Notes: generated from the letters alone by a model not told the origin. A stretch of DNA of 64,000 nucleotides from Leptonemataceae bacterium (GCA_965227295.1 OZ245742.1:704001-768000); one strand, 5' to 3'. Shown: positions 46,286-64,000, counted from the first letter of the stretch. Numbers and translations are program-made.

Positions 46286-46792
46286 ATGCGCCGCCTTGTT
46301 GAAATACTATGTCCCACGGCCCTGGCCGTGATTGCTTTGCTCACCCCCGGCGCGCTCCTGGCCGAGTCCATCGATCCCGCGGCCCACCAGGCAGCGCTGG
46401 AATTCTTGCAAAACAAAGACGCCGGCATCGTGGACCTCTCGCTCCGCACGGACATCGACACCGAGCTGGACGAGGAGTTCGACGCGGCCTTCGAACAGTA
46501 CCGCAAACTCCGCGCGCTCGTGGACCGCGAGGCCGAAGACGAGCAACGCAAAGAATCGTGGGGCTGGCAGTCGGGGTCTGCGCCGTTCGCGCTCGGTATC
46601 TTCGGTGACTCCGTGCCGTTTGCCATGCCGCCGCCCGCATCCCGGGCGTTCTTAGCTGAATCTCCCTCAAACTTAAGCAACTTTTCTTTCGCGGACGCGC
46701 CTGCGCAGGCCGCGATTCCGCTCCGGCCGGACGTGCCGGATCATCTTCGCAATTATCTGGCGAGGCTCCAGCATGCGGGGCCCGTTCACTAA
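46286..46792 (+). CDS. Small secreted leader protein upstream of the giant gene
   Basis: Signal peptide ending ALLA-E, acidic helical domain, C-terminus RLQHAGPVH. Confidence 0.65.
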   Translation: MRRLVEILCPTALAVIALLTPGALLAESIDPAAHQAALEFLQNKDAGIVDLSLRTDIDTELDEEFDAAFEQYRKLRALVDREAEDEQRKESWGWQSGSAPFALGIFGDSVPFAMPPPASRAFLAESPSNLSNFSFADAPAQAAIPLRPDVPDHLRNYLARLQHAGPVH

Positions 46793-46811
46793 CTTTCTAC
46801 GAGTAAACTCT

Positions 46812-49800
46812 ATGAATTTCCGTTTCGCATTCCCTCGATCATTCCTGTCCGTGCGGCGGCGCTACCGGCGCTTCGCCCGCAAATCCAGACTCCACCGTCG
46901 TTCCCTCAGTTCGTTTATGGCGCTGCTCTTTCTCGTGCAGTTCGTCCTGGCACCGACGGGCGTCTTCGCGCAAACATTCGATCGTCTCGATGAGGACGTG
47001 AACAAGAATCGCATCGGCGATTACGCGAACGCCGTCGAGGGCGCGGATGACGAGGATGATTGGAATGAGTTCGTCGGCAGCGGTGCGGATTTGTTGCGCG
47101 CGGAGTGGGAGTATCGCGCGGATCTGTTGCTCGAACAGGAAGTGACTGCCGGCGCGGCTCGGGAAGACCTCGAAGCGGAGAAGGCCCTCGCTCGTGAAGC
47201 CTGGGAAGCGGAACTGGACGACGAGATCGATCAGCGGCGCGGCCGGTGGCGGGCACGCACGGCGGCGCAGTCCCTCGACTCGTTGCTCGATGACATCGAT
47301 TACGACGAACTGGTCGCCGCGGTGAACGATGCGAACGCGCTCATGTTCACCGACGCGGACGATGCGGCGACTCGCGTGGCGGCGTGGGACGCGATTGCCG
47401 GGAATCGCGCGGCGCTTGCGAAGGCGGCGTGGGAATCGCAACTGGACGCGGAGATGGCGGCGCTCCAATCGCAGGGCGCGGGGCTCTCGGCGGAAGAACA
47501 GGCGGCGTTTCTGAGCGAGCTGGAGCGGGTGCGGACGCAGGTCGAGTCCGTTTACAAGGTCGAAGAAAGCGCCGTCGTAACTTCTTCGCGGCGTAAGTTT
47601 GTGACCGAAGCAAACACCGGTGATGACCTCGCGCGTTCCCTCGCGCAAAGCACGGATCCGGCCGAGATCGCGCGCCTGCTCGTTCGGAAAACCGAACTGG
47701 AGATGGAGCGCCTGGGCGTGTTACCGGGCGATGTGCGTTTTGATGGTGTCGATGCGCAACTCATTTTAACCGGCGCGGGGGATTATCAGGACCAGGTCTC
47801 GCAGGCGCTCGAGGCCGGGCAGTCGGCGTGGAAGTCGGCGATCGATGAATTGATTGCGCGCAAGATCGGCTTCGATGAGCAGGTGGCGGCGTCGCGCCAG
47901 GCGGGTGAGAATCAATGGGCGACGGCGTATGCGACGATCTTAGATGCGCGTGAGTCGTGGTTAACGGACGTGGAAGCGCAGATCCAGCGCGGGTTGCAGG
48001 CCTGGGATGCGGCGGAGTCCGAGCTCGCGGAAAACCGGCAGCTTGCGGAGCAAGAACTCGCGCGGCTCATTGAAAACGATCGGCGGGATTTTCAGGAACA
48101 CACGCGCGGCATCGGTCAGCTCGTGAGCGGGGCCTCGTCGACGCTCGCAACGATCGTTGAAAATCAACGCTGGTTTTCGACGAAGATTGCCGACTTACAC
48201 GCGGACATCACGCGTCTTGACGGCGAGTCGCAGAGTTATGCCGGCGGCATTCATCCCATCGGCACGCCGGGCTGGGTGGATCAGTACAACTGGCACCGCG
48301 CGAACTTCACCGACGCCGAGATCAACGATCGTTTCAATCGCATTAATACTTACACCGCCGAGCTCGCGTACTGGAACAGCCTCGAAGGCGAGTACCGGCA
48401 GATCATCGCCGACGCCGAGGGCGTCGTGCACTCCCAGGACATGCGTGACGGCGGCAACGGGCCCGGCTACTTTCACGACGCCGGTACCGGCGGCGACGCC
48501 CTGCTCTTAACCGCCACCGAGTTTGAGTTAAAGCTCGCCCGGGCGCGCCTCGCCGTACTCGAAGAAGAACGCGATCGGGCGCAGGCGGTACTGGACTACG
48601 CCGTGGCGACCACGAAGGACGGGGCCGCGGATATTCAGTCGCAGCTCGCCGCGGCGAAGTCGTCGTATGAGGCCGCGGAAAGTGCCTACTTAACGGAACT
48701 CGCCGCGCTGAACGGCGGTGGTTCGCAGAGTCTGGCGCGGGTGGGTCTGGATGATGAGTCGACGCGCGAAAGCGGGGACGCGGTCGTGGGTGCGACGCTG
48801 CTGGATGATGTGAACGCGCTCGCGTCCGATCTCGAAGCGAAGGCGCGCACGCTGGAACGTTCGCGCACGGCGCTCGATAACGCCCGGGACGCCTACGAAC
48901 AAACGCTCAAGCTGCAGGTCTTAATTCAAAATCCGTCGATGTTAAGTGACATCGGGTTGCTCGCCACGGATTCCTCGGCGATCAACGAGGACGGCGAGAA
49001 CGAGGGCCTGCGCTATGAGATCTTTCGCGCGGAGACGGACTTAACCGAGGCCCGGGAGAAGTTACGCCAGCAGGAGCAGGCGTATCTGCGGCTCATGTAC
49101 GAACGCGAGACGGCGCTGCGTTCGACGGGCTTTTTTAATCAGACCAACGAACGCATCATCTTACACGAACAAACGAAAGACAAACTCGCGCAACTGAGCG
49201 CGGTGCTCGGCGGGGCGGGTTCGTTGAGCGACAAACTCACGGCGCTTTCGAGCGGCTCGCTGCTCGCGGACATTTACGGGAACGCGGCGGCCGATCAGTT
49301 TCGTGATCGCATTGCTGATATTGCGGCGGCGGTGAGTGACGCCGAAGCGCCGGTGGCCACCGAGACCAACGCGCTGAACGGCGGGCTCGCTGAGTTCGGA
49401 ACGGCGCACGGTGCGGTGACATTCGGCGGCGGGGAGCGCGATGCGCTTTCGAACTTTGCGGGCGAGGTGAACCGCATTGTGGACGCGCTGGACGGGATCG
49501 CCGGCGTGGACTGGGGCGGCGGTCTGGATGATTTGCGGACGCTCGGGTCGGCCTTAACTGATTCTGTGGCGTTGTTAGCGTCGCGCGGCGGTGACTACGA
49601 CGCGGCCTATGCGACGTTTGCCGCGGAACTGAGTGATTATGAATCGTATGCGGCGGCGAACGCGGGTGCCGAGGCGTCGGCGGCCTACCAGGCGCGGACG
49701 GCGCGGTTGCTTTCGGCGGCGGATGAGTTTCGTCTGGCGGCGGCGCGTTTCGAGCAGGAGTTCCGGATCGCACAGAGCATGCAACAGCAGGCCGAAATTT

Positions 49801-52800
49801 TGCTCGGGCGTACGCTGGGCAGCGCGCCGATCCTGATTGACGCTTCGATTACCGGCGACGCCCGGTCCGCGGCCCTGCAAACGATCAGCGCGGAGAAGTT
49901 AGCGTTTGATGCGGCGGGGACGTCGGCGTTGGGCGCCATCGAAACCGGGGACGACGGCTTCGCGGCGCTCGCGGAGGCCTTCGGCCAGCACGCGGAGCGG
50001 GTGCAGGTGTATCGCTCGGCCCTCGGCGGGCGGAGCCAGGCGAATCTGGCGGCGGGATCGTTCGTGAACGAGCTGCACGAGACCCTGCGCGGCTCGCTCG
50101 CGAGTCAACGTTCGCAACTGGCCTTTTTATTAGAAGAAAGTGCCGATGAGGCGTTGCTCGATTCGATGCAGGGCGAACTGGAGCGCGGGCAGCGCCTGGA
50201 AGCGGCGGAGATCAATGTGCGCGCGCTGGAGCTGACGGAGGGTTATCTCGCGAGCGGGCGGAGTGTTAACATCTTGCTGATTGAAGTTACGGAGGCTGTG
50301 AACGCCCTTTTGAATGCGTATGACGTCACGGACGGGGCGCAGCGGCGGGAACTCGCGGCTCTACAGGCCGTGGGTCAGTATCTGTCGCAGAACGCCCAGG
50401 GCCTGGCGCTGCTCGATGACGCGGACCGCGCGGAGGTTGTGAGCGGCCTTGCCGATGAGCGCGCCTTTGCCGAAGACCTGCGCGACTGGTTCGCCGCGGA
50501 CGGCTTAATGTCCGATGCGGAGCAGTTAGCGATTCGCACGGGCGGCTCGCCGGTGGAGCGACGGTTGCTCTCGGCGTTTTTTAATCCGGCGGGGCAGATG
50601 GTCTTCGGTCAGGTGGCCTTCGGCGCCGCGCAGGCCGAGGCGATCGTGTTGCAACAGCACGCCGACTTCGCGGCGCAGGTGAACGCGGGCCTCGTGCAGA
50701 GCGCCATGACGGATAGGTATCATGAGGACCAGGAAAACAAGATCACCGGTTTGATCGCCGAGATGAAAGCGGCGGTGCCGGCACTGAATTCGCTCACCGC
50801 TTCGCAATTGTACAACGACAGCGCGCCGGTTTCCCGGGACGGCCTCGCCCACGATACCGACGAAGAGAACGCCCGCAAGGCCGTGCTCGCTTCGCTCCTG
50901 AGTGGCGCGGGCGCGTCGACCGAAGATCGGCTGAATGCGCTCACGGACATGGCTCAGCTCGTGCCGATCTTCGGCGCGGAGGCGGCCGTCTCCGTGTTCG
51001 CGGAGTTGCAGGCGATGCAGGACGCACACTCCGGCGCGGCTGAAGAACTGGCCCGGGCGTCCCGGGCGCTCGTGAACCAGGGCGCGGCCTTTGACGCGGA
51101 AGTGGACGCCCTCTTAGGTGCGTACGGCAAGAAGTCTGCGTACGTAAGTCAGCGGGACGCGTTGCAGGCGGTGCTGGATCTTGCGGATGTGGAAGATGCG
51201 AGCTCGCCGGCCGTTGTGGGCGTGCCCCAGGCGGACGTGGACGCGCATGTGGCTTCGCTCGGCGGCGGGGATGATCCGGCGGTGGATTTTCCGGCAGACT
51301 GGACGCCGGTGGACGACGCCGACGGCGACGCGCCGGGTGACGCGGCCTGGGATCCGACGTACACGCACGAAGACGGCTTTGTGACTCCGTTCGCGGGCCT
51401 TGACTTTGCGAGCGTGACGAACGCACGCAACGACCTCGACGCGGCGCTCGCGGACTGGGACGCGAACGAGGCCACGCTGAGTGCGGCGGTTGCTAACTTT
51501 CGCGCGGCGAAAGCTACGTTCGATGCGGCGGTGCTTGCGAATCCGGCGGGCACGCCGGGCTACGACGCGGCGCTCACGGACTTCGCCGTGGCGGTGAACG
51601 ATATGTACTTTGCGTATCGCGCGCACAACGAGTTTTTCGTGGCGCTGGAGTTCCTGGCGCGGGACGCGGGGGACCAGGCGCGCGGTGTCACGGCGGCGGC
51701 GAAGTCGCTCGCGGGCTTAGATCCGAATCAACAGTTGTTAACGGCGGCGGAGCTGGCGGCGACGCCGACGGAGTTCCAGGACGAGGTGGCGGCGAGCCCG
51801 GCGGCGTACCTCGTGCTCGCGGGCACCGAAGACGCGCACGTGCTGGCGCTGGGCGCGGCGGATTACGCGGCGTTTCAAAGTGCGAACGAAACGCAGTTAG
51901 CAACGGCGGTGCGTGCGAGTGACGAGGGCAGCTTCGCGGGGGCCGCGGCCGGCGTGGGTTTCGCGCGGGAGCGTTATTCGCAGGCGGTCACGGACATGAG
52001 CGCGGCGACGGCCGAGGCGGATGCTTTGATTGCGGCGCTACCGGACCGGGTGGACGTGCGCCTCGATCCGGGCAGCACGGATGAGGTGAGTGCCGCGACC
52101 TTAGTTTCGGTTGTGGATCAGTTACGAATTTTCTTCGCGGAGAAACAGGCGGCCGGGCAAGACGTGAACCCGGCGATTCTGGACGCGCTGGAAGCGGCGG
52201 GCGGCGCCCTCGATGAACTGGAAGCGCTGCGTGATTTTCGCGATCGCGGGGCGAGTGTGAGTGTCGAAGATGCGAAGGCCGAACGCACGGCGGCCGAAGA
52301 AGCCCGCGATGATACGGCCGGGGTCGGCGCGTTGATCGTGGAGTTGCAGCAGTTCATTTCACAGAGCGAAGCGAGCGGCGCGGGCCTGCACGAACAGGGC
52401 GATCGCATTAAGGAGTTGCTTGCGAAGTACGAAGCGGCGCAGGCGGACTTTGCGGCGGTGTACGCGTTCAGTGCGGAGCTGGACGATGCGATGTCGCTGC
52501 TGCGTGATCATGCGTGGGCGCAGCACAAACGCGAGTTGACGCAGGCGTTTCTGGTGCGGCGGGGGGACCTGTCGGTCGATGCGTTTCTTTCTAATATAGA
52601 GCAGGGTCGTTTCGTGAACGTGCCGGGGGCGAACGGCGAATCGATCAGCGTGGATTCGAAGTTTCTCGGCACCGCGCTGGATGCGACGCAGTTAAGTGAA
52701 CTTGAGGCGTTGTTACGGGAGTATGCCGCGCGGGCGCGCGTGGATGATGCCGGCATTGTGGCGGACATCGACGCCCTGCTCGCCCAGGAAGACGCGGCCG

Positions 52801-55800
52801 TGCGGGCCGCCGTGGAACCGGATGCACTAACGTATTCTTACAATAACTTTAACGCGCTGAACACGGCCGGTGTGGGCGACTTTACGGCTCTGCCGGCCGC
52901 ACTCAAAGACTACGGCCTCGTGAGCGCGTATGAAAGCTACACGCAACGCCTGGGGTTGGCCCTGAATGATGCGGATGACCGCGCGACGGGCCTCAGCCGG
53001 TTTCTGGATACGCTGAGTCAGGCGAACCGCGCGGCGGCGGAGCCGGTGTTGCAGGAGTATTTAACGAACTACGACGCGCGCAATCCTTCGTACTATTTGC
53101 CGGCGGATTTGAAAGATCGTTTTGCGCGGGAACGTTATTTCACAAAGCGCTACTCGGATGAACTTACTCCCGGGGATGCCGTGGCGCTGGGTGACTGGCT
53201 CGCGCAGGAGAAATTCGACGCGGGCGTGAGCGGGGCCGTGGAGAGCGCTGTGCGGACGGCCTACGTCCTCGACAACTTCTACGGCGAGGATGCGAACGAG
53301 TACTTAACCGCCATTGATGCGGACTTAAGCGTGCTCACCGGCAGCGGTGTGAGCGCGGAGGAGCGCCAGGCGTTCGTGCTGGGCCTCAGCGGCATGCTCA
53401 GCGCGGCGGGGGATCCGTTCATTGAACCGGACGCGATGCTCGCGGGCACCGTGATCTACGATAACTTTTTGTTCGAAGACAACACGCAGGCCTTGAAAGA
53501 CGCGCTGGATGCGGAGCTTGCGAACTACGCGGGGGTCCAGCGGACAGCGGACGCGGCGGCGACGCGGGCGGGTTTGTTTTTTGATTATAAGTCGGGTGCG
53601 AAGTCCATAAGATCGTACAAATCGTACTTAAACATTGCGCCGACGGGTTTGAGCGAGCCGGATGAGGCGACGCAGATTGCGGGCATGCTCGCGGAACTGG
53701 AGCATCAGGCGGAACATCGTCTGGGGGCGTTCGTGTCGCTCGTGGAGCAGTACTCGAGCTTCGCGTACAACGCGGACCCGGCGTATGCGAACAACCTGAA
53801 CATTCGCGATACCATCGGCGAGATCAACGCGGACTTCGCGCTGCAGGACGGACAGTACGCGCGGGCCGGGGACGGCAGCTACGTGTTCGAGTCCGGCTTA
53901 AATAACACTCAGGTGCGGTTAGACGAATTCGTGAACGCGAACACGGCGGCGTTCACCGCGGCGGATCGTGACGCCTACGCCCAGGTGCAGAAGCAGCAGG
54001 GCGCCATGGATCAGTTGCAGGAGACGATCATCACCGCGGGCCAGGAGGCCGTGCAGGTGAGCTGGATTACGGGTACGTTCGGCTCGGATACGAACGCGTA
54101 TCTGGGGGCGCTGGATCATGCACGCCAGGTGTTCGCGAATCGCGAGGCGGACTTCGACGCGGCGGAAATTGACTACAAAACGGCCGAATCGGCACTGCGC
54201 ACGAAACGCGAGGAGTATCGCGCGCAGCAGGACACGGTGCTCGCGAATTACAACGCACTAAGGGTCGCCGAGGTGGAGTTAGATCGGCTGAGCAGTTTGT
54301 ATGATCAGGCGACGATTGAGGAATACTCGCAGCAGACGGACGCGAACGGCGATACGGAAACGCTGGGGGATCCGGTGGCGGACGCGCAGGTGCGTTTTGA
54401 CGCGGCGCAAGGTGCGTACGAAGCACAGTTAGCGAAGATCGCGGGGCTCGAAGAGAAGCTGGCCCGCCAGGTGACGAAGGCGGAACTCGCCGCGGCGGCG
54501 GAGGTGCAGTTGAATCGGGACGAGACCGAGAAGTGGGCGATGCACGCCATGCGCTTCTCGCGCGCGGAAGAACGCCTGGAGGATAAGATCAATCAGCTGC
54601 ACGCGGACATTGAAGACATTAAGTCGAACATGGAACAGAACTTCGGCGCGCACTTTGATATTTCGATGACGCGCTTCGACGGTTACCGCCAGGAGGTGGC
54701 CGGTTATCTGGACTACGGCAGCAGTGATTATGTGCGCAGTGAGAATCTGCATCGCGATCGCTTTCGGTTGTTGAACGGGCTTGTGACGGGACAGATCGGT
54801 TTTTGGGATCTCGCGTACAGTCAGGCCGGCGGTTATGTGCAGCGGCCGATTTATGAAACGTATACGGACGCGGAGGGCGAAGAGCGCCGGCGGGTGATCG
54901 GTTACACGGACAACGCCGCGTGGAGTACGGGCATTGCAACGAAGAGCGGCGGCGAGTATGATCTGTTCGGTTTCGTGCACGGTTACAACCAGGGTCGCGC
55001 CGGACAAAATGAAACTCTGCGTGAGTTAGCGCAGGATCAGTTCTTATGGTCGTGGGAAGGCGATCTGTGGGCCGGCGCGCGGACGGCGCTGGACACGTCG
55101 AACTTCGACGCGGGCGTGTGGAATAATTATACGACGGGCGTGCTGACGATGGCGGCGATTTTTCTGTACGCCGGGGCGGCGGGGTTGCCGTTCTTGTTTC
55201 AGTTGTACGGGAAGGATCAGGCGTTCATGCAACAGGCGGGTCTCGCCTACGGACGTTTCGCAACGCTCACGGACAGCGCGAATGAGTTAAAGCAGAAGTA
55301 CGCCGAGTTGCACCGGTTGACGGACATAGACACGGTGGATCAACTGCGTGACGTCTTAGATGACGATGAGTTCGGGTTAACGGCCGAAGACCTGGCGCTG
55401 ATCGACGGATCGGGCGGGCTGGGGAACCTGGTGTGGAAGGGCGGCAAAGAGGACCTGGGCTTTAACGAGCTGGTGGGCAGCAACGGCCTGACGATCGCGC
55501 AGCAGAAGGCGATTCATGATGAATACGGTTTCTTCGTGCGCGACGGCACGTTTTCCGCGGGCGCGATAACTGCTACACCGACAGAGACGGATAAGTTCGG
55601 CCGGCGGACGACGCTAATGATCAGCGGGGATGAGTTTACGGATGCGATGGCCGCGATGGCGCAGACGCAGTACGAGATCGAGCGCCAGGAATATTTTCGT
55701 GCGGCCGAGACGATGACGAAGGATCGTGTGCAGGCGGATGATAAAGTTATCTTAGACGAACGGGAAGAATTCTACGCGAATTTACTCACGCAGGCGCAGG

Positions 55801-58800
55801 GTGTCGGTGTGGAGTACGAGATGTATCGTGTGCTCGCGGAGGATTACCACGGTGAAGGCGGGATTGTGGAGCAGGTTGCGGAGATTGAATTTCAGCAACG
55901 GATCGCATCTCAACAAAACGAGTGGGATTTACGCGAGGAGCAATTCGCGAAGAAGCGCCAGGAATGGGAGCAGAACATTGCGCGGTTAACTTCGGTGGGT
56001 GAAGAGCGCTGGAGTGATATGACGACGGAGGTTGCGACGGCCTGGAATAAATGGCGGAAAGATTTTGATCAACAGGCGCGGGATGCGGAGGATCTGTATC
56101 TGGAACGCATCGGTGATGCGGTGCAGGATCAGCAGGAATGGCAGGATGAGTTTACGTCGCTCGCTACGCAAGGGACAGATGAGCAGACGTTACGCGAGTT
56201 GTATGACGAGATTAATGCGATGGTGGCGGGATTGAAAACCGGCCTGCCGGACGATGTGAGCATCGATCTTAACGCCAACGAGATCCTGAACCAGGTACTG
56301 GCGAATCAACCGGACACGTTGAGTGAAGATACGATTTTGCGCGGGCAGTACGCGAATACGCAACTGTTTGTGAATGAGTTGCGGGAGTACAGTTTTGATA
56401 ATTCGATTCAAGACCGCTACGATGAGCTGACCGAGCGTTACGAAGAACAAACGCAGCGGCTCGTGCGTTTGCAGATGCTGGATAGTCTCTATGGCTTGAT
56501 AGACATGTATGATGAGACGATCGCGAAGGCGAACCTCGCGTTGCATAAGGAGCTGGATCTGAGTTTCTCGCGCAGTGAGTGGATGCGCATGGGGCCGGTG
56601 TACGCGAAGTTTATTAAGACACCGGCGGCGGTGATTACGGGTGGCAGCGCGATTCCGGTATACGCGCCCACATATGAAGACTATCAGTATATAAAGCCGG
56701 ACCTGACGATTGAAGCGATCGTAAACGACGCGAACGGACGCGAGTGGAACTTAACTGAAACAGAAAAGATCTTAGCGGACGACGGACCTTCCGGCGCCGA
56801 ACTCGAAGCAATGGTGCGCCTGGTGCGCAACAAATTGCAGAAGGACTTCGAAGAGCACTACGATCCGGACGAAGAAGTGGATTACGAGGCGTCTACCGGA
56901 TTGATCGCGCTGGATCTTGAAAGTGCCTTTGCCGCGAGTGCATCGGCGTTGCAGAATCCTCTGACGTGTTCGGAATCCGAGAGCATGGACGAATGTGCCC
57001 GCAGCATTCTGACTTCAGGCTATACCGTGGGTCTCGTGGAAGGCGGGACGTTCGGTTGGAATCACTTCGAGACATTTTACCGGGCCCTCGCGACGAAGAA
57101 GTTCTTTGATCAAATGGAGGCCGAGGGTCAGGCGGCACGCAACAGCGTGGGAGCACGGATGGGCCGGGACCTGGGCAATAATATTACGGCACCCCAGCGG
57201 GCGATCGCACGGAACGCCAGTTGGGCCCTGGATACCTTTGATCGGAACATCGACGCGCTGGCCTCAACGTTGCAACTGGGTTCATTCGGCACATTCGGTC
57301 TCACCCTGGGAACGAATGATCTGAAGAGCGGCCTGGCAAGGTACAGCGGCGCGATGCGGGATAGCGTGAACGCGTATGATAAGTTTCACCGTGGCATTCG
57401 CGTGGGCATGCAGAAAGGCTGGACCCGGAATGATACTTACATCGATGCGGCGATAACCGTGGCACTGACGGCGTTGTCGTTTATTCCGGTGCTGACGCCG
57501 TTTACGCTGACGGCCCTCGCGGCTTACAAGTCCCTTCGTGGAAGTTACCAGGGCGGCACACGGGGAGCGCTGGTGTCCGCAGGCGGAAGCGCGGCGTCTG
57601 TTCTGGCCGGCATGGCCACCGGCGGCACGGTGAGCATTAACGCGGGTTATAGTTTTCAAGGCGGTTACAATGGCGGCATTAGCCTGGGGCAAGGCGGTGC
57701 AAGTGTCGGCGTGAACTACAGCGAACAGGGCGGCTACGGCATGAGCGTGGGCTCGAATGGTGTTTCGCTGCGATACGGTGAGCAGGGTTCGTGGGGTGTG
57801 AGTGCGGGCGGCTTAAGTTATGATTACTCGCGATCAGGCGGTCACAGTTACGGTGTGGATGTGGCTCACTTTGAAGGCGAGAGTGGATCCGTGACCGGCA
57901 CGTTAACGTATAACAACAAGACCGGCACGGGCGTGAGTGCGAGCGCACAGTTCGGGACGACGGGAAAATACGGAACCTTCGGTGGGAATTCGTCGGTGGG
58001 CTGGTCTCGCTTCGGTGGCGTGAATAGTAACTTCGGTCTGTCTTACACGGCGCCGAATGTGAGCCTGGATTTTGGGTTGAGCGGTGATGAGCCTGTTGCG
58101 CCGACGAATAGTGATGAGTACCTGCTGAGTAACATTTTCGCGGGCGCCGCGAGTCGTGTGGATGAGTGGACGAAGGGCATTGCGGGTGCCGGTGATGCGG
58201 TGGCGGGGTTTGCCGGGAGTGCGCTTGGTTTTGGACGTGGCGGTTTTTGGGAGAAAGCCGGGAACTGGGCGAGTGGTAGTGGGTATCAGACGAATGCGGC
58301 TATTGCGGCTTCGGCAAAAGCAGCAGCCCTCGGGAAAGCTTACTACGACGCGACGACGACTGTCGATGCTTTGATTGATGTAACGAGCGACAACAAGAAT
58401 GAGGCTGGCGAAAACATTGTATCCACGGGGCGGGGAAAAAACATTCTCCAGCAAGCAGCGGGAGAAAACTACAGCGACGAAATCGCGAGCGAGTTTCTGG
58501 GTGATAAGTGGGATGCACAGGTGACAGCCGATATGATCGGTGCCGCCCTCGTTGCCATGGGCGTGGATGCAAACAACGTCGACTGGAACGGCGTGGCTCA
58601 GGCGATTCACGTTGACCAACAGAATTACGAAAAGCAACTTCACTCTGCGCTGGTCCGTTCGCGAAGCGATGATCGTACGATGGCTTTTCTCGAACGTTCC
58701 GGTGAGAAACTTATTTCGAATGTTACCGTAACTTCCGCCGGTACGATGGTAACGGTGATGAACCGTGAGAGCGGTGAGATGATGGTGTTGCCGGGGGACC

Positions 58801-59945
58801 ACCCGGCAGTGAGTGATATGCGGTCGGTTTCTTACGGCGGCAGCACTGCGGATGCCGTGAATGTGAAGGATACGATTTCACAGGCCGTGTGGAACGAACA
58901 GGATGCTCGTTGGGAGGCCCGCGGTCAGTATGCGGAGTTGTACCAGAAGCTCGTTTCTTCCGATGCGACGGACTATCTGTATTACGAACCAGAATTGCGG
59001 TGGGATCAAAAATTGCACGCGGGACTCGCAGGTGCGCATCAGTTTGCGTTCGATTACGCCGTGGCCCCCGTACTGGGCGGCATGGCGGCTGGTCCTCTTG
59101 GTGCGGTCGGCGCCATTTATGCAAAGAGCCTCGGCGGTTTCAGTGCGTATCGCGAAAGCGGTTTGCGCGACATTATGCTCAACAACAGCCGGTACGCTCC
59201 GCAGCAAAAGATCGCCGCGGGAAACATTGCTGATGCAACGGATGAATACGGAGTGCTCGCAGTGGATGCCGGATCGACACTGGCCGGCGGCATCGGCTTG
59301 TGGCGAACATTTGCGAAGAACGGCTTGAAGGCAAGCGCGGCCGCTGCCTGGAATGCAGTGAAGAGTCCGTTTGCGAAGTGGACGGGGGGAGTCGCGGATG
59401 ATGTGGTGGGGGCACCGGAATACAGTCTAGCATTTTTTGGCGACACAAACCTTAGCTATTATACTCGCCAGAATCCGACACTTGGTCGACCAGGTAGATC
59501 GTTTTTTGTTATGCCGCTTGAAGATGGAGCCCATGTGCGCAATGCTCACGATGCAGCAAGGTATACTGGGATGGCTCCTTCCGCCCAAGCTGCATATGTG
59601 AATCAAGGGCCTATCTACGCGCTAAGCATACCCAAGCAAGGTATCCCACACCGGATTCCAACTGCAGCTGATGCAAATGGATGGAAGCACTTCTTAGATG
59701 GCGGTCATACGGCAGTAAGACTTGAATTAAGACCAAGTCTTACGGAGATTAAGCAAATGCTTCGACATGGATATTCGTGGGCAGACATAAGCCATTTCAT
59801 ACTTAAGCCCGCTCAAGCAAGAGGAGGATATCTACTTAATCCCACAAGGGAATTCGTTATCCCGGGTGGTACACCGGTTCCGCCCGGATCAGTATTGTCT
59901 GAAATACTAGCCGATGGCTCATGGAAGCCTATACTAAGGTTCTAA
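46812..59945 (+). CDS. Giant exported protein (TIGR04388 Leptospira long-protein-like) with C-terminal polymorphic toxin domain
   Basis: Uninterrupted 4377-aa ORF with a long signal peptide ending VFA-Q, Ala/Glu-rich helical body, hydrophobic hairpins, a Gly-rich beta-repeat block and a low-GC tip. Confidence 0.8.
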   Translation: MNFRFAFPRSFLSVRRRYRRFARKSRLHRRSLSSFMALLFLVQFVLAPTGVFAQTFDRLDEDVNKNRIGDYANAVEGADDEDDWNEFVGSGADLLRAEWEYRADLLLEQEVTAGAAREDLEAEKALAREAWEAELDDEIDQRRGRWRARTAAQSLDSLLDDIDYDELVAAVNDANALMFTDADDAATRVAAWDAIAGNRAALAKAAWESQLDAEMAALQSQGAGLSAEEQAAFLSELERVRTQVESVYKVEESAVVTSSRRKFVTEANTGDDLARSLAQSTDPAEIARLLVRKTELEMERLGVLPGDVRFDGVDAQLILTGAGDYQDQVSQALEAGQSAWKSAIDELIARKIGFDEQVAASRQAGENQWATAYATILDARESWLTDVEAQIQRGLQAWDAAESELAENRQLAEQELARLIENDRRDFQEHTRGIGQLVSGASSTLATIVENQRWFSTKIADLHADITRLDGESQSYAGGIHPIGTPGWVDQYNWHRANFTDAEINDRFNRINTYTAELAYWNSLEGEYRQIIADAEGVVHSQDMRDGGNGPGYFHDAGTGGDALLLTATEFELKLARARLAVLEEERDRAQAVLDYAVATTKDGAADIQSQLAAAKSSYEAAESAYLTELAALNGGGSQSLARVGLDDESTRESGDAVVGATLLDDVNALASDLEAKARTLERSRTALDNARDAYEQTLKLQVLIQNPSMLSDIGLLATDSSAINEDGENEGLRYEIFRAETDLTEAREKLRQQEQAYLRLMYERETALRSTGFFNQTNERIILHEQTKDKLAQLSAVLGGAGSLSDKLTALSSGSLLADIYGNAAADQFRDRIADIAAAVSDAEAPVATETNALNGGLAEFGTAHGAVTFGGGERDALSNFAGEVNRIVDALDGIAGVDWGGGLDDLRTLGSALTDSVALLASRGGDYDAAYATFAAELSDYESYAAANAGAEASAAYQARTARLLSAADEFRLAAARFEQEFRIAQSMQQQAEILLGRTLGSAPILIDASITGDARSAALQTISAEKLAFDAAGTSALGAIETGDDGFAALAEAFGQHAERVQVYRSALGGRSQANLAAGSFVNELHETLRGSLASQRSQLAFLLEESADEALLDSMQGELERGQRLEAAEINVRALELTEGYLASGRSVNILLIEVTEAVNALLNAYDVTDGAQRRELAALQAVGQYLSQNAQGLALLDDADRAEVVSGLADERAFAEDLRDWFAADGLMSDAEQLAIRTGGSPVERRLLSAFFNPAGQMVFGQVAFGAAQAEAIVLQQHADFAAQVNAGLVQSAMTDRYHEDQENKITGLIAEMKAAVPALNSLTASQLYNDSAPVSRDGLAHDTDEENARKAVLASLLSGAGASTEDRLNALTDMAQLVPIFGAEAAVSVFAELQAMQDAHSGAAEELARASRALVNQGAAFDAEVDALLGAYGKKSAYVSQRDALQAVLDLADVEDASSPAVVGVPQADVDAHVASLGGGDDPAVDFPADWTPVDDADGDAPGDAAWDPTYTHEDGFVTPFAGLDFASVTNARNDLDAALADWDANEATLSAAVANFRAAKATFDAAVLANPAGTPGYDAALTDFAVAVNDMYFAYRAHNEFFVALEFLARDAGDQARGVTAAAKSLAGLDPNQQLLTAAELAATPTEFQDEVAASPAAYLVLAGTEDAHVLALGAADYAAFQSANETQLATAVRASDEGSFAGAAAGVGFARERYSQAVTDMSAATAEADALIAALPDRVDVRLDPGSTDEVSAATLVSVVDQLRIFFAEKQAAGQDVNPAILDALEAAGGALDELEALRDFRDRGASVSVEDAKAERTAAEEARDDTAGVGALIVELQQFISQSEASGAGLHEQGDRIKELLAKYEAAQADFAAVYAFSAELDDAMSLLRDHAWAQHKRELTQAFLVRRGDLSVDAFLSNIEQGRFVNVPGANGESISVDSKFLGTALDATQLSELEALLREYAARARVDDAGIVADIDALLAQEDAAVRAAVEPDALTYSYNNFNALNTAGVGDFTALPAALKDYGLVSAYESYTQRLGLALNDADDRATGLSRFLDTLSQANRAAAEPVLQEYLTNYDARNPSYYLPADLKDRFARERYFTKRYSDELTPGDAVALGDWLAQEKFDAGVSGAVESAVRTAYVLDNFYGEDANEYLTAIDADLSVLTGSGVSAEERQAFVLGLSGMLSAAGDPFIEPDAMLAGTVIYDNFLFEDNTQALKDALDAELANYAGVQRTADAAATRAGLFFDYKSGAKSIRSYKSYLNIAPTGLSEPDEATQIAGMLAELEHQAEHRLGAFVSLVEQYSSFAYNADPAYANNLNIRDTIGEINADFALQDGQYARAGDGSYVFESGLNNTQVRLDEFVNANTAAFTAADRDAYAQVQKQQGAMDQLQETIITAGQEAVQVSWITGTFGSDTNAYLGALDHARQVFANREADFDAAEIDYKTAESALRTKREEYRAQQDTVLANYNALRVAEVELDRLSSLYDQATIEEYSQQTDANGDTETLGDPVADAQVRFDAAQGAYEAQLAKIAGLEEKLARQVTKAELAAAAEVQLNRDETEKWAMHAMRFSRAEERLEDKINQLHADIEDIKSNMEQNFGAHFDISMTRFDGYRQEVAGYLDYGSSDYVRSENLHRDRFRLLNGLVTGQIGFWDLAYSQAGGYVQRPIYETYTDAEGEERRRVIGYTDNAAWSTGIATKSGGEYDLFGFVHGYNQGRAGQNETLRELAQDQFLWSWEGDLWAGARTALDTSNFDAGVWNNYTTGVLTMAAIFLYAGAAGLPFLFQLYGKDQAFMQQAGLAYGRFATLTDSANELKQKYAELHRLTDIDTVDQLRDVLDDDEFGLTAEDLALIDGSGGLGNLVWKGGKEDLGFNELVGSNGLTIAQQKAIHDEYGFFVRDGTFSAGAITATPTETDKFGRRTTLMISGDEFTDAMAAMAQTQYEIERQEYFRAAETMTKDRVQADDKVILDEREEFYANLLTQAQGVGVEYEMYRVLAEDYHGEGGIVEQVAEIEFQQRIASQQNEWDLREEQFAKKRQEWEQNIARLTSVGEERWSDMTTEVATAWNKWRKDFDQQARDAEDLYLERIGDAVQDQQEWQDEFTSLATQGTDEQTLRELYDEINAMVAGLKTGLPDDVSIDLNANEILNQVLANQPDTLSEDTILRGQYANTQLFVNELREYSFDNSIQDRYDELTERYEEQTQRLVRLQMLDSLYGLIDMYDETIAKANLALHKELDLSFSRSEWMRMGPVYAKFIKTPAAVITGGSAIPVYAPTYEDYQYIKPDLTIEAIVNDANGREWNLTETEKILADDGPSGAELEAMVRLVRNKLQKDFEEHYDPDEEVDYEASTGLIALDLESAFAASASALQNPLTCSESESMDECARSILTSGYTVGLVEGGTFGWNHFETFYRALATKKFFDQMEAEGQAARNSVGARMGRDLGNNITAPQRAIARNASWALDTFDRNIDALASTLQLGSFGTFGLTLGTNDLKSGLARYSGAMRDSVNAYDKFHRGIRVGMQKGWTRNDTYIDAAITVALTALSFIPVLTPFTLTALAAYKSLRGSYQGGTRGALVSAGGSAASVLAGMATGGTVSINAGYSFQGGYNGGISLGQGGASVGVNYSEQGGYGMSVGSNGVSLRYGEQGSWGVSAGGLSYDYSRSGGHSYGVDVAHFEGESGSVTGTLTYNNKTGTGVSASAQFGTTGKYGTFGGNSSVGWSRFGGVNSNFGLSYTAPNVSLDFGLSGDEPVAPTNSDEYLLSNIFAGAASRVDEWTKGIAGAGDAVAGFAGSALGFGRGGFWEKAGNWASGSGYQTNAAIAASAKAAALGKAYYDATTTVDALIDVTSDNKNEAGENIVSTGRGKNILQQAAGENYSDEIASEFLGDKWDAQVTADMIGAALVAMGVDANNVDWNGVAQAIHVDQQNYEKQLHSALVRSRSDDRTMAFLERSGEKLISNVTVTSAGTMVTVMNRESGEMMVLPGDHPAVSDMRSVSYGGSTADAVNVKDTISQAVWNEQDARWEARGQYAELYQKLVSSDATDYLYYEPELRWDQKLHAGLAGAHQFAFDYAVAPVLGGMAAGPLGAVGAIYAKSLGGFSAYRESGLRDIMLNNSRYAPQQKIAAGNIADATDEYGVLAVDAGSTLAGGIGLWRTFAKNGLKASAAAAWNAVKSPFAKWTGGVADDVVGAPEYSLAFFGDTNLSYYTRQNPTLGRPGRSFFVMPLEDGAHVRNAHDAARYTGMAPSAQAAYVNQGPIYALSIPKQGIPHRIPTAADANGWKHFLDGGHTAVRLELRPSLTEIKQMLRHGYSWADISHFILKPAQARGGYLLNPTREFVIPGGTPVPPGSVLSEILADGSWKPILRF

Positions 59946-60199
59946 TGGAGTGGGAAAATAAAGGTTGCTATTCATGCCGTCATAGATGGCTTAGCGGAAA
60001 GCCGCCAAAGAAAATTGCGGATAGCCCAACTTATCCGGTCAGCTTGCACCAGTGCAAGGTCTGTGGCTCTCTCTGGGAACAGACAGACCGGTTTGCCGAC
60101 ATCCTTAGTCGAGAAGAAGCTATCAAAGTTTTTGGTCAAATTCCTGAACTTATGGATGAGAACAATGCAGAAGCTGAAGACACTCTCACCGGTGAATAA
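59945..60199 (+). CDS. Candidate immunity protein 1 (CxxC...CxxC)
   Basis: The ATG overlaps the toxin TAA; 84 aa; CYSC and CKVCGSLW; low GC. Confidence 0.7.
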   Translation: MEWENKGCYSCRHRWLSGKPPKKIADSPTYPVSLHQCKVCGSLWEQTDRFADILSREEAIKVFGQIPELMDENNAEAEDTLTGE

Positions 60200-60554
60200 A
60201 CTAGAGTTGCAGTTGGCCTCAACACGCCGCGGTGAGACTAAAATGTCCGAATTTCTGACCACTCTCATAAGTGAATCAGTTTTCGTGCCAAGCGGTACTC
60301 CTGTTGAACGAGATCTGGGCGAGTTGCAACCTATTGTGTACGATAGGGCCGGAATTGAAGTCATCGCCGTTTTTTCTAGCTCAGCCGCCGCCGCAACGGC
60401 TTCAGACATGGCACCATTTGGGCTAGAAATAAACACTCGTGAACTCCTGAAGAGTCTCTCACCAAAGACGGGCATAGTCCTAAATCCCGGCTTTGATCTT
60501 GGATTAGAACTACTACCAGATGGGATCCCAAAACTGCTTGAAGACTTCGGGTAG
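60192..60554 (+). CDS. SseB-N-like protein, candidate immunity protein 2
   Basis: The GTG overlaps the upstream gene; VFVP, IAVFSS and GIVLNPG match the SseB-like pattern. Confidence 0.65.
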   Translation: MNKLELQLASTRRGETKMSEFLTTLISESVFVPSGTPVERDLGELQPIVYDRAGIEVIAVFSSSAAAATASDMAPFGLEINTRELLKSLSPKTGIVLNPGFDLGLELLPDGIPKLLEDFG

Positions 60555-60572
60555 TGTTTGGCCTATCCCTGT

Positions 60573-62917
60573 GTCGAGTAGGGTCAGCCCGTCACCGGGC
60601 CAACCCCCTCTAAGAACCGTACGTGCGAGTTTCCCCGCATACGGCTCAAGCAGTTCCCGCCTTACGATTCGCATGAATCTGCTGATGGCAGAAGAGATGT
60701 ACAAGTTGAAGATTCAGGATGTGGCGTTCACCACCCTGCGAGAGCGGAACCTTGTGATGGATGTGCAGCTTTTCGCCGTTCTCCAGATCCGCGGCACAGA
60801 GCGGGCAAAGACCTTTCTGAATCATTGCGAGGGTACGATGATAGGGACGATCCATTTCCTTCACGGCCTTCAGGCGACGTTTTTCCCAGTATGATCTCAA
60901 ATCGGGATCATCGGGCGAAGCGTCACCACGCACCATAATGTGCGGTCGTTTTTTCACCCACGAGAGTTTTCTCAGTAAACGGAGTTTCCCTCGCGATGGA
61001 TCAACGGTCGCGAACACCCAATGGTCAGAGCGTTCCGGATGGTGTCTTCCCCAATAGCGGGCTTTGGTCCAGCGTTTTCCCTTGTTGGAGTGTCGTCGGC
61101 GAGCCCAACGCCAGAGGCGATGCCAGCAGAAGTGATCGACGCGTGCGAACACCTTGCTTGACGCACAGTGACGATAGTAATTTGCCCAGCCAATGAGCAC
61201 GGGATTCAAAGCGTCGATCAGGGCGAGTTGGGGCGCGCCCTGGTATTGCCTGACAAGATCGCGAACGCGATCTCGCAGGCGACGCTCGTTGTCCCGGGAG
61301 GGACGAATGAGAAGTTTCCGACCTTCGCGTGGATTGCGAAACATGGGATTCTTCGTCATTCGTTTCGTTCCCGATGCTTCCACCTGTTGGAGATGGAAAC
61401 CCAGGAATTCGAAACCGTCGCTGGCGTGAACAATCCGGGTTTTAGATTCCGATAATCGCAACCCGCGCCTGGAAAGCCAGTTCCCGAGCAACGGCAGTAA
61501 CGCTTCCGCTTCGCTACGTGATCGGCAGAAGACCAGAAAGTCATCGGCGTAACGCACGAAGCGGTTGTTCGGAACGAACTCCTGCATACCATCGAGGGCG
61601 ATATTGGCGAGCAAAGGAGAGATAACTCCCCCCTGAGGAGTACCGGATTCAGAATCCGAGAACACTTCGTTCTCAACCACTCCCGCCTTGAGCCATTGTT
61701 TGATCAGCTCGTATGCGGGGAATCGGTGAAGTTTGCGAAGCAGGAATTCATGGGAGATGCGGTCAAAGGCGCTTTCAATGTCGGCGTCAATGACCCACGG
61801 TGTGCGCGATGCTCCGCAGACCTGACGGAAGATCGTTTCGATAGCATCGTGAGCACTCCGGCCCGGACGAAATCCGTAGGATCGAGACTCGAATCGAGCT
61901 TCCCATTGAGGTTCCAACGCGTTTTTGACCATGGCCTGCATGGCCCGGTCCTGAATCGTTGGAATTCCCAGGGGTCTTTGTTTGCCGTTCGCTTTCGGGA
62001 TGTAGATTCTTCGTACCGGGGACGCCTTCCAGGGCTCGTGCAGAGCCAGGAAGTCAACCAGCTTTCCCCTCGCGGCCGGTGTCTTCAGGACGAGACCATC
62101 GACACCCGGCGTGAACTTGCCACGATTCTTCTGCGTCACCTGCCGCACGGCAAGCAGCCGATTGGAAAAGCTCCGCAGCATCAGTTTCTGCAGGGAGCGT
62201 ACTTTGCGCACGTTGCCCTGTCTTTCGGCTCTGAATATTCGTTGCCGCAGACGACGTACTTCTTTCATGGCCCTCTGCCAGTCGACAGAGTTCCAGTCCG
62301 TAGCGGACGCGTAATTCTCATCGCACGATGGTACGATGCCAGTCTCCGCATTTTCCTGAGTCGTCATTGCAAGTGTATTCAGTGAACTACCCTGTCGAAG
62401 TGGGCACCCTTTCGAGTTGATCAAAAGATCTATTCGGCCGGTTATGATTTCCCGTTGCCTTTCGGCTGCCGACGTTCGCTTATTCGACAATCCCATACCC
62501 GCTGAGGAGTCCGGCCTTGTTTACACTCAGCTTGCCGGACATCGGTCCGGACCCCAACGGGCTTACCACGTTCCGCAGGTTGAAGATACGACGGGACAGG
62601 CACCCAATATACCCCGGCGGCTGAGGTGGCTGCACCCGTGTGGTAGTATCACGGGTTCTCCTGTGCCGCGTTTCCTGGCATTCACCTCTGATCCAGGCGG
62701 TTTTTTACGAAGGCTTACTCGGGTTCACTTACGTTTGCCATACCGTCTTTTCCGGTTGCCGGATCCAATGGAGGTTCATCGCGTCCGTTGCAACATCCCG
62801 GCAGCTTCGCACAGTCCGTTACCGTTCTGCGCGTGCCGGGCGGAAATGGAGCCAGCCACAGGCTCATCAGGTCAGTGTTCCACCTCCTGAACTTCTTCCA
62901 GCGACTTCGTGTCGCAC
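60573..62917 (-). mobile_element. Group II intron (IIB/chloroplast-like class, probably intact)
   Basis: 5' end GTGCGACACG at 62917; domain V GAGCCGTATGCGGGGAAACTCGCACGTACGGTTC; domain VI ending CCTACTCGAC at 60573. Confidence 0.92.
60646..62367 (-). CDS. ltrA: Group II intron reverse transcriptase/maturase with HNH endonuclease
   Basis: TPGVDG, RPLGIPTIQDR, SYGFRPGRS, GTPQGGVISPLLANI, YADD, GWANYY, CPLC...HH...GG...NL...H..CH. Confidence 0.95.
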   Translation of the reverse strand: MTTQENAETGIVPSCDENYASATDWNSVDWQRAMKEVRRLRQRIFRAERQGNVRKVRSLQKLMLRSFSNRLLAVRQVTQKNRGKFTPGVDGLVLKTPAARGKLVDFLALHEPWKASPVRRIYIPKANGKQRPLGIPTIQDRAMQAMVKNALEPQWEARFESRSYGFRPGRSAHDAIETIFRQVCGASRTPWVIDADIESAFDRISHEFLLRKLHRFPAYELIKQWLKAGVVENEVFSDSESGTPQGGVISPLLANIALDGMQEFVPNNRFVRYADDFLVFCRSRSEAEALLPLLGNWLSRRGLRLSESKTRIVHASDGFEFLGFHLQQVEASGTKRMTKNPMFRNPREGRKLLIRPSRDNERRLRDRVRDLVRQYQGAPQLALIDALNPVLIGWANYYRHCASSKVFARVDHFCWHRLWRWARRRHSNKGKRWTKARYWGRHHPERSDHWVFATVDPSRGKLRLLRKLSWVKKRPHIMVRGDASPDDPDLRSYWEKRRLKAVKEMDRPYHRTLAMIQKGLCPLCAADLENGEKLHIHHKVPLSQGGERHILNLQLVHLFCHQQIHANRKAGTA

Positions 62918-63001
62918 ACTCCTGAATAACCCATCCGAACAACTCCGGTCCGCTCAGAAAAAGGTTTACCATTCCAATCGGTACGTATAATCTAAGCCAC
63001 C

Positions 63002-64000
63002 GTGGCCACTGCTCCAAAAGGCTACCGATCTCTACTTAACGAGATCGGCAAAATTCATTCGCAGGCAACCCAGGCTTCTCGTTCCGAGATGAACCGGGCC
63101 ATTCTCACTGCACGCCTGGAGATTGGCCGCATGATCGTAGAAGCGGAACAGGGCGGCGAAAGCCGGGCCGGTTACGGCACACGACTGATAGAACGACTCG
63201 CCGAAGATCTGAAAACACGTCTCGGCCCGGGCTACAGTGAACGCAATCTCGGCCAGATGCGTAAGTTCTACAACACGTATGACCACTCCAAACTCAACTA
63301 CAACCTTGGCTGGGCGCACTATCGCGAGTTGCTTCGCGTGCAGGATGACCGGGCAAGAGCACGCATTGAAAAGCAAGCCGCGACGAATGGTCTCAGCGTT
63401 CTTGAAGTGATCGCGCTGGTGCAGGCGGAACGCAGCTCAACGCAAGATCGAATTGATGAACTGCTACGACGTCCAAACGGACGACTGTACTCGTACCGTG
63501 TGAAACGCGAACTGGGCGACTACACAACGAGGAAACCGCTGCTGGACCTCGGCTTCTCGACGTACTTGCCGCTACCTGAAAATTCTCCACATGATGCGGC
63601 TGTGATTCACTCCACTCAAACCTCAAAAGGCTATGTTTTTGAAGTCGGCAGCGAAGAAGACCTGTATCTGTATCGCGCTCAGGTTCGGGACGTAATCGAT
63701 GGCGATACCTTACTTGTTTACGTGGACGCCGGGTTCGGTGTGATTTCAAAACAAAAGATACGGCTACGTAATATAGATGCGCCCGAGTTAACGACGGAAC
63801 GCGGGCGGGACGTAAAAGCCGCTACAGAAAAACGCCTGAGAGGTGTTCCCTTCGTATTGATTCGAACAAGAGCGACGGATATGTACGACCGTTATTTGGC
63901 GGACGTAGTGCTGGGTTCAGGCGATAAAAATGTCGATAATATACTGGAAACGGGAGTTCACCTGAATCGCTGGTTGGTGGAGGAAGGTCTCGCCGTAGCA
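63002..64000 (+). CDS. DUF1016 (YhcG) N-terminal domain fused to a thermonuclease (SNase); 3'-truncated by the window edge
   Basis: Hand translation from GTG 63002 stays open to the end: IGRMIVEAEQ..RAGYG..LIERLAEDL, SERNL.QMRKFY, WAHYRELL, then VIDGDT, IRLRNIDAPE, DMYDRYLA, NRWLVEEGLA. Confidence 0.85.
   Translation, partial: MATAPKGYRSLLNEIGKIHSQATQASRSEMNRAILTARLEIGRMIVEAEQGGESRAGYGTRLIERLAEDLKTRLGPGYSERNLGQMRKFYNTYDHSKLNYNLGWAHYRELLRVQDDRARARIEKQAATNGLSVLEVIALVQAERSSTQDRIDELLRRPNGRLYSYRVKRELGDYTTRKPLLDLGFSTYLPLPENSPHDAAVIHSTQTSKGYVFEVGSEEDLYLYRAQVRDVIDGDTLLVYVDAGFGVISKQKIRLRNIDAPELTTERGRDVKAATEKRLRGVPFVLIRTRATDMYDRYLADVVLGSGDKNVDNILETGVHLNRWLVEEGLAVA

Follow-up and report, generated by a model that had tools for sequence, protein, structure and literature searches.

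The DNA considered here, hereafter the window, is a stretch of 64,000 nucleotides (nt) from a Leptonemataceae bacterium (GCA_965227295.1, OZ245742.1:704001-768000; G000:C1:704001-768000 in the internal numbering), the genome of which is a single contig of 5.94 Mb with 59.8% GC. The last part of the window holds a locus built around one giant gene, and this locus is very probably a polymorphic toxin system mounted on a giant carrier with phylum-wide conservation in the spirochaetes. By the criteria for polymorphic toxins of Zhang et al. 2012 (PMC3482391), the locus displays: (i) a carrier with a conserved part and, among its paralogues, unrelated C-terminal domains, (ii) orphan cassettes, with six modules at three loci and arrays in relatives too, (iii) a C-terminal toxin domain, predicted to be toxic from its sequence, that is shared with carriers of other secretion routes, and (iv) a putative cognate immunity gene directly 3' of the toxin, the product of which is modelled to bind the tip and may be protective. 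What is new is the carrier family, its junction and the toxin-partner cassette, rather than the kind of system.

The genome has three full-length copies of the giant gene, termed A (the window), B and C. The proteins of A and B are 90-100% identical in each 100-column block of their alignment up to residue ~3793 and ~20% identical thereafter; at the DNA level, identity between the two stops at window position 58310, inside a junction motif (WEKAGNW.SG.GY.TN). Taken as far as residue ~3846, which corresponds to this position, A and B are 96-100% identical, and beyond it they cannot be aligned. Paralogue C, which is 40-77% identical in the body, keeps the junction motif and changes its tip there, and the tip of paralogue A is unique within the genome. 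The constant part of the giant protein amounts to ~3846 residues and the variable tip after the junction to ~540 residues. Within the same genome, the N-terminus is thus conserved while tips and downstream genes are swapped; the earlier note on this DNA had named this combination beforehand as a test of the toxin reading, which the outcome supports.

The orphan modules of the three loci are truncated carriers, with five positioned 3' of paralogues B and C and one past the window. The ORFs (open reading frames) 3' of B and C have 837, 992, 1018 and 1468 amino acids (aa), together with one that is cut at the end of the compared locus. These five are without the first 2800-3500 residues of the carrier, begin to match the window protein at residues 2786, 3175, 3248, 3442 and 3542 and match through to 3688-3841; each then ends in a different C-terminus, with small ORFs behind it. 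Of the constant part, the orphan modules retain only the last 300-1060 residues, and the longest begins to match at residue 2786, at a hydrophobic segment of the carrier (residues 2787-2811). The sixth module has the glycine-rich region of the carrier and a tip of its own, followed by a 98-aa ORF. Arrays of a main gene plus orphans also occur in relatives, one of which (G075) has frames of 870, 1256 and 927 aa behind a 4143-aa frame. Orphan modules are preceded at seven places by a spacer of ~400 nt (e.g., genome 768007-768406, from window position 64007 onward; 80-88% identity), the last 80-120 nt of which are a dispersed repeat with ~50 further genome copies in the BLAST listing; the spacer could serve as a recombination or promoter element for the orphans.

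The toxin domain of the window protein is compositionally foreign. The GC content at third codon positions (GC3) is 0.741 in the carrier body, 0.616 in the linker that opens the tip and 0.373 in the toxin domain, with values of 0.435 and 0.466 for the 84-aa gene and the SseB-like gene downstream. In a search of 1.84 billion cluster representatives with the last 240 residues, 192 match at E<=1e-3, and in nearly all of the best 150 of the 192 the match lies at or near the C-terminal end (proteins of 93-4281 aa). Among the 69 longer matches, precomputed Pfam annotations identify one VgrG, three Rhs, one Fil_haemagg_2 and five WXG100-like (PF25547) proteins as carriers of the tip, as well as one TNT and two Endonuclea_NS_2 proteins. 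The 185-aa domain itself has no Pfam family; its conserved core includes the motifs F.MP.ED, TG.APS, DA.GW.HF..GG.TA and TREF. Two conserved blocks of the window toxin domain are separated by an insertion of 28 residues (window 59700..59790; tip residues ~112-143) that is absent from the nine closest homologues and is modelled, at lower confidence, as two short helices.

Known toxin-associated domains are present elsewhere in the family. Paralogue C ends in a tip of the Ntox30 family (PF15532, E 6.9e-26, cut-off 25 bits), and a pre-toxin HINT domain (PT-HINT, PF07591) is detected at E 5.7e-22 in a 4210-aa relative of the Leptospira type. Searching with a pre-toxin region profile yields 18 proteins, 13 of which have source names, all 13 from named Leptospira species; one Leptospira protein among them is named by NCBI as a 'polymorphic toxin-type HINT domain-containing protein'. 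A HINT pre-toxin domain is also remarked on in the large Leptospira interrogans protein LA_3725 in an earlier paper (PMC4751964), and, given this remark and the database names of the Leptospira relatives, the toxin reading itself is not new. In the part of the 2012 survey that was available, Ntox30 in spirochaetes is listed under the Sec route, and the toxin domains of spirochaetes are placed only under the general Sec route (PMC3482391). Pfam searches of the tips of paralogue B and the orphan modules find no family, with only a sub-threshold match to Gln_amidase (E 0.0094).

The toxin domain and the two small genes that follow it form a compositionally foreign three-gene cassette, which is also found in other phyla. 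Linkage was counted in 21 toxin loci from other phyla, where the 84-aa four-cysteine gene follows the toxin in 14 (directly abutting the toxin gene in 12 of the 14) and an SseB-like gene is found in 15. The four cysteines are invariant in the 84-aa family. When the 84-aa protein is modelled together with the tip, the two bind with an interface score (ipSAE) of 0.89, compared to 0.02 for the best of three controls; the 0.89 mark is reached by 58 of 80 solved complexes and by two of 110 mismatched pairs, in a calibration that is only rough because the alignments were the author's own. The binding runs share at least 91% of contacts, the predicted local distance difference test (pLDDT) of the partner is at least 81, and the modelled interface covers conserved tip residues 31-40, 60-71 and 96-102. 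The models thus support binding of the four-cysteine protein to the tip. On one gammaproteobacterial contig (L058 785..1414), the four-cysteine and SseB-like proteins are fused in a 209-aa ORF directly after the toxin, a fusion which argues that the two proteins act together. The SseB domain is predicted to be a peptide-binding chaperone and is linked to ADP-ribose systems in a published analysis (PMC9503650). The earlier note had read the giant protein as a polymorphic toxin carrier, and this reading is supported by the swapped tips, by Ntox30 on paralogue C, by the presence of the window tip on other carriers and by downstream genes that move with the tip across phyla.

The structure model of the tip has a pLDDT of 90.4 and a predicted template-modelling score (pTM) of 0.80, and a search of PDB sequences with the tip profile finds nothing. 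A minority of its weak fold matches are NAD-using proteins of the ADP-ribosyltransferase fold, with template-modelling (TM) scores of 0.25-0.36. Given these matches and the link of SseB to ADP-ribose systems, the best guess, a weak and doubtful lead drawn from models, is that the tip may be NAD-using, with a divergent ADP-ribosyltransferase-like fold.

The carrier begins with a predicted Sec-type signal peptide of ~66 residues, in which a long arginine-rich leader runs into a hydrophobic segment (residues 48-66). The conserved N-terminal domain is matched in 42 of 301 genomes sampled phylum-wide (25 of 126 genera), mostly within open frames of 2000-4600 aa, with some shorter frames on cut contigs; it is also matched in 21 of 41 relatives. 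The carrier had been proposed in the earlier note to be mostly alpha-helical; its body is rich in Ala, Leu, Glu and Asp, and residues 3400-3617 are modelled as helices at low confidence. No Pfam or NCBIfam family is found in the giant protein, whether as a whole at E<=0.01 or as seven overlapping pieces, which give nothing significant at E<=1. The Pfam search had been proposed in the earlier note, which had also claimed that RHS/YD, filamentous haemagglutinin, RTX, PAAR/VgrG and LXG motifs are absent; in agreement, the Rhs, haemagglutinin, RTX, PAAR/VgrG and LXG families are unmatched in the whole protein and in the pieces at these thresholds, the best piece match to such families being to WXG100 in mid-protein (E 0.27). 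A PDB sequence search with the whole protein matches no chain, an ESM Atlas search with the N-terminal domain gives no usable match, and a word-based search with residues 30-530 against 5.8 billion proteins matches only the paralogues of the same genome.

A possible means of export is offered by the glycine/serine/tyrosine-rich module ahead of the junction (residues 3620-3759). Within the order, 30 of 151 genomes have the module, and the N-terminal domain and the module stand in the same giant ORF in two of five distant genomes tested. Modelled with AlphaFold2 on a 25-row alignment, the module folds as 12 antiparallel strands (block pLDDT 73-88), along which hydrophobic or aromatic residues alternate with small polar ones. 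Its best PDB neighbours by Foldseek are closed barrels, which are transmembrane in 20 of 41 listed rows; the top match is the invasin beta-domain (4e1t, E 3.4e-3, probability 0.96), and others include a designed barrel (TMt 0.50-0.56) and the KdgM porin (TMt 0.48). The locus had been described as having no recognisable delivery signature; this holds for sequence searches, whereas the structure model gives a candidate 12-strand barrel before the toxin. Among other routes, a type VI secretion system (T6SS) sheath gene, TssC (PF05943), is not found in the genome by a search whose control matched in Escherichia coli, and a ShlB/CdiB-type partner (PF03865) is likewise not found, in a test that is weak since its control matched nothing in any of 14 control genomes. 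Of the mechanisms that can be named, a type-V-like, self-contained export by way of the module is the most likely, though on the strength of the model it is a tentative candidate that may well be wrong. It is possible, though less likely than not, that the spirochaete giant proteins, including the Leptospira long proteins, constitute a self-contained new type V subtype dedicated to polymorphic toxins, with a phylum-specific N-terminal domain, a helical body of ~3000 residues and an internal barrel that exports or displays a swappable toxin without a separate transporter gene.

The proposed mechanism is as follows. Spare tips and their downstream genes are stored as orphan modules, and recombination within the shared pre-toxin region and junction motif would move an orphan tip onto a full-length carrier. 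In the producer, the four-cysteine protein would bind and block the toxin, with the SseB-like protein acting as a chaperone or accessory factor. The weakest step concerns exit: after Sec export, the 12-strand module may insert in the outer membrane, and a flanking part of the protein may pass through or beside the barrel, as in type V autotransporters. A barrel placed before the C-terminal tip would be in the order known from the inverse autotransporters intimin and invasin.

A number of points count against this account of the locus, whether as a toxin system or as one with an internal barrel. Toxicity, immunity and export are predicted from sequence and structure models. The tip has no significant fold match in PDB or BFVD (none at E<=1e-3; best PDB E 0.2; TM scores of at most 0.36), and the linkage of the cassette is incomplete, as the four-cysteine gene is not found in seven of the 21 loci (E<=1e-4) and the SseB-like gene is not found in six (tblastn). 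Recombination of tips is not seen, the contigs of two sequencing runs from one study giving the assembled arrangement only. The barrel rests on one model (mean pLDDT 59.3, pTM 0.36), no Foldseek match to the module reaches E<=1e-3, and soluble barrels (ABBA prenyltransferases and LolA-like proteins) are also among its fold matches. None of the 25 module sequences matches the Pfam families of autotransporters or inverse autotransporters (IAT_beta) at E<=1, and a crude Kyte-Doolittle score of beta-amphipathicity is 0.74 for the module, not distinctive from the protein-wide mean of 0.71. With 29% glycine and an imperfect repeat of ~18-19 residues, the module could also form a beta-solenoid or an amyloid-like stack. 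A PDB profile search with the module finds nothing.

The rival with the most in its favour retains the polymorphic toxin and differs only over its exit: the module would be a beta-solenoid or amyloid-like stalk, or a colicin-like flexible translocation segment, rather than a membrane barrel, and the outer membrane would be crossed by a route outside the locus (via vesicles, by lysis or through a phylum-specific exporter able to recognise the N-terminal domain). The glycine-rich repeats, the lack of a type V family match by sequence, the undistinguished beta-moment score and the low overall confidence of the model all fit this possibility, as does the N-terminal domain, which as the most conserved part phylum-wide would suit a recognition role; by contrast, the alternation of hydrophobic or aromatic residues on the strands, the closed barrels (about half of them membrane barrels) that are the closest solved folds, and the lack of any candidate exporter among the window ORFs scanned speak against it, and the rival falls just short of an even chance.

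Two further rivals concern the nature and the target of the tip. A structural protein of the surface or periplasm (adhesin, sheath or scaffold) might vary its C-termini for antigenic or adhesive variation, which matches the description of the TIGR04388 long proteins in the earlier note as putative structural proteins with variable C-termini, and a very large Ala/Leu/Glu/Asp-rich body without an enzymatic domain, in a family widespread in the phylum, would be in keeping with this. Such a protein is very improbable here, however, as Ntox30 ends one paralogue, PT-HINT is present in a relative, the tip is common to VgrG, Rhs, haemagglutinin-repeat and WXG100-like carriers, orphan arrays are present, and tightly coupled small genes travel with the tip, the product of one being modelled to bind its conserved surface. 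It is also improbable, if less so, that eukaryotic cells are the target of the toxin (protists or, for the Leptospira relatives, hosts), with the downstream genes only protecting the producer. NAD-using toxins directed against eukaryotic cells are the weak fold neighbours of the tip, host-associated Leptospira have relatives too, and a Leptospiraceae-specific toxin domain, PT8, is reported in a preprint to harm fungi (10.1101/2021.10.19.465003); however, those fold matches are not significant, free-living bacteria of several phyla have the same tip on VgrG, Rhs, haemagglutinin-repeat and WXG100-like carriers, and kin competition usually takes the form of multiple tips with orphan arrays. A polymorphic toxin system on a giant carrier is the reading preferred here.

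The genes and features of the locus are listed below. The gene order given in the earlier note is present in the window: a small secreted protein gene with a signal-like segment, the signal-peptide protein of 4377 aa (as counted from ATG 46812; 4390 aa from 46773), two overlapping small genes of low GC (by their GC3 relative to the giant body), an antisense intron and a nuclease fusion. The nuclease gene had been taken as the last gene of the locus; it is present but is followed beyond the window by the 836-aa orphan module. Packing is tight, with the 168-aa gene running 20 nt into the giant gene and the SseB-like gene starting within the 3' end of the 84-aa gene. A secreted protein of 168-171 aa, with a signal-like N-terminus and a conserved body, is kept 5' of all three paralogues. 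The 168-aa protein has no family in Pfam or NCBIfam, and ORFs of 249-266 aa at its position in relatives are not homologous to it by BLAST. The absence of a transporter gene from the window had also been claimed, and no transporter or secretion component is found among the 20 further window ORFs scanned, 13 of which have Pfam matches (all metabolic or regulatory) and seven of which do not. The glutamate dehydrogenase gene is an ordinary flanking gene at the upstream edge of the toxin island, which extends to ~772-773 kb of the genome, where glycosyltransferase genes start. In the two sequencing runs, the constant body has ~2x the depth of the tip, as expected because the paralogues share the constant body; a joint in the run contigs at 58296>63794, considered as a deletion, is explained most simply as a contig of paralogue B placed on the window. 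A third run under the same species label has no contigs on the window, from which nothing follows.

Features of the toxin locus and its surroundings (window positions unless stated otherwise; residues are those of the giant protein)
Feature	Position	Strand	Basis or remark
NAD-specific glutamate dehydrogenase, 1626 aa	41394..46274	-	Bac_GDH_CD E 1.6e-212
Small secreted partner protein, 168 aa	46286..46792	+	ORF list; signal-like N-terminus
Giant carrier-toxin gene, 4390 aa (4377 aa from second ATG, 46812)	46773..59945	+	ORF list
Conserved N-terminal domain, residues 30-480	46860..48212	+	Most widely conserved carrier part
Hydrophobic segment, residues 2787-2811	55131..55205	+	Kyte-Doolittle scan
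Hydrophobic segment, residues 3559-3585, just N-terminal to beta module	57447..57527	+	Kyte-Doolittle scan, alignment
Glycine/serine/tyrosine-rich module, residues 3620-3759	57630..58049	+	Modelled as 12 antiparallel beta strands
Junction motif WEKAGNW.SG.GY.TN, end of paralogue identity	58248..58310	+	Protein alignment
Variable tip linker, residues 3847-4205	58311..59387	+	Intermediate GC, GC3 0.616
C-terminal toxin domain (predicted), 185 aa	59388..59942	+	No Pfam family; GC3 0.373
Candidate immunity gene, 84 aa, CxxC...CxxC	59945..60199	+	ATG overlaps giant gene's TAA as TAATG
SseB-like accessory gene, 132 aa (129 aa from 60165; another start 60243)	60156..60554	+	PF07179 E 2.2e-9
Group II intron	60570..62935	-	Compared with second, 99.9% identical copy
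DUF1016_N + SNase fusion, 336 aa, stop at 64012 (12 nt beyond window)	63002..64000	+	
Sixth orphan module, 836 aa	L015 5158..7668 (genome 768157-770664)		Starts 145 nt past nuclease gene
Paralogue B	C1:5013499-5026602	-	

The antisense element is a group II intron, inserted 16 nt after the toxin cassette. Its ORF for reverse transcriptase (RT), maturase and HNH (60646..62496, minus strand) scores 361.9 bits against TIGR04416 (cut-off 300), and its catalytic domain V/VI (60573..60649, minus strand) matches RF00029 at 65.5 bits (gathering score 40); the 5' end, GTGTG, is probably near 62919. The second copy of the intron (genome 40063-42428) is also beside a toxin-type locus. The 16-nt sequences just 5' of GTGTG are similar in the two copies (13 of 16 identical), which probably reflects the insertion site of the intron. 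Group II intron RT genes are also noted in the array of paralogue C (L014 8276..9691) and upstream of paralogue B. A 124-aa ORF (60520..60894, plus strand) is almost wholly inside the antisense intron, has no family match and is probably spurious. The nuclease gene has DUF1016_N (E 5.9e-25) and SNase (E 2.8e-5) domains. The SNase part recurs, at 73% identity, before an orphan module at paralogue B; since this part and the ~400-nt spacer recur before orphan modules, the nuclease gene is placed inside the toxin island.

The locus supplies a concrete toxin carrier for spirochaetes, namely a giant family that combines a defined junction with orphan arrays and a common pre-toxin module; as far as the literature searched shows, the anatomy of the carrier and the barrel candidate are new. 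As the module is common to the 'longest protein' family of Leptospira, it offers a testable account of how a toxin may exit a diderm in which neither a T6SS nor a CdiB partner is detected. The three-gene cassette (toxin, four-cysteine partner and SseB-like partner) is likewise new, lies outside Pfam and spans several phyla.

The TIGR04388 proteins ('Lepto_longest') are long proteins of the same bacterial order and have the glycine-rich pre-toxin module in common with the giant family. The earlier note had connected the window protein to TIGR04388 and proposed a hidden Markov model search against this family as a check; the search leaves the window protein unmatched at E<=0.01 (curated cut-off 45 bits). 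The genome has 24 matches to the model, none in the window, spread over some twelve or more open frames of 1142-2652 aa (e.g., C1 5063716-5126700, 21783-28337 and 2993298-2995994), several of which are clustered at ~5.06-5.13 Mb. As all 24 matches lie elsewhere, the window protein is not a member of TIGR04388, and the proposed connection reduces to a separate family that shares only the glycine-rich module. The N-terminal 130 positions of TIGR04388 match relatives of the giant family weakly, below cut-off (E 1.8e-6 and 3.3e-4). The module is present in TIGR04388-type ORFs, including four TIGR04388 frames of this genome, and in a Leptospira-type relative the C-terminal part of TIGR04388 recurs in several short frames, like orphan modules; the shared module and these short frames suggest that the TIGR04388 family is also a toxin carrier. 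One TIGR04388-type ORF of 2184 aa is flanked by near-perfect inverted repeats (genome 20259-21837 and 29553-32345; 864 and 621 nt; 99.7-100%) that contain SNase-like coding sequence, an arrangement reminiscent of an invertible or composite element.

Type V, VI and VII secretion, as well as Rhs and Maf proteins, have well-documented polymorphic toxins. The Maf islands of Neisseria (MafA-MafB-MafI) include an upstream small secreted or lipoprotein gene, a MafB that is conserved in its N-terminal part but variable at the C-terminus, an immunity gene and orphan cassettes. The locus described here is similar to these islands in its upstream small secreted gene, predicted Sec signal, variable C-terminus, putative downstream immunity gene and orphan arrays, and, to our knowledge, a dedicated outer-membrane transporter is not identified for Maf either. 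MafB, which has a DUF1020 domain, is a few hundred residues long; the window carrier, by contrast, is ~10x longer, has no Pfam family (and so no DUF1020) and includes an internal beta module, such that the likeness is in layout only.

Rhs/YD systems similarly pair a conserved body and a variable C-terminal toxin with immunity genes and orphan tips, which in Rhs displace one another by recombination, and the same tip domain is found on Rhs proteins. The window protein differs in that it has neither YD repeats nor an Rhs core, in the whole-protein and piecewise searches, and the genome search for a T6SS sheath gene found none. Features of effectors of the T6SS (a PAAR, VgrG or MIX-type N-terminus, by Pfam) and of the type VII secretion system (an LXG or WXG100 N-terminal domain, the only WXG100 match being the weak one in mid-protein) are not found in the giant protein.

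The CdiA/CdiB/CdiI system (type Vb) also has a very large exoprotein, a sharp junction motif (VENN in CdiA; WEKAGNW.SG.GY here), cognate immunity and orphan modules, and the window tip occurs on one haemagglutinin-repeat protein as well. The window protein, however, is without the two-partner secretion (TPS) domain and haemagglutinin repeats of CdiA, and the body of the carrier is probably helical rather than a beta-helix. Inverse autotransporters (type Ve, e.g., intimin and invasin) resemble the giant protein in the order of signal, N-terminal part, 12-strand barrel (here a modelled one) and exported C-terminal part. The differences are that the module has no IAT_beta sequence match and its fold match is below the significance mark, that the candidate barrel is preceded by ~3600 residues rather than a small periplasmic domain, and that the passenger is a predicted toxin instead of the immunoglobulin (Ig)-like domains of an adhesin.

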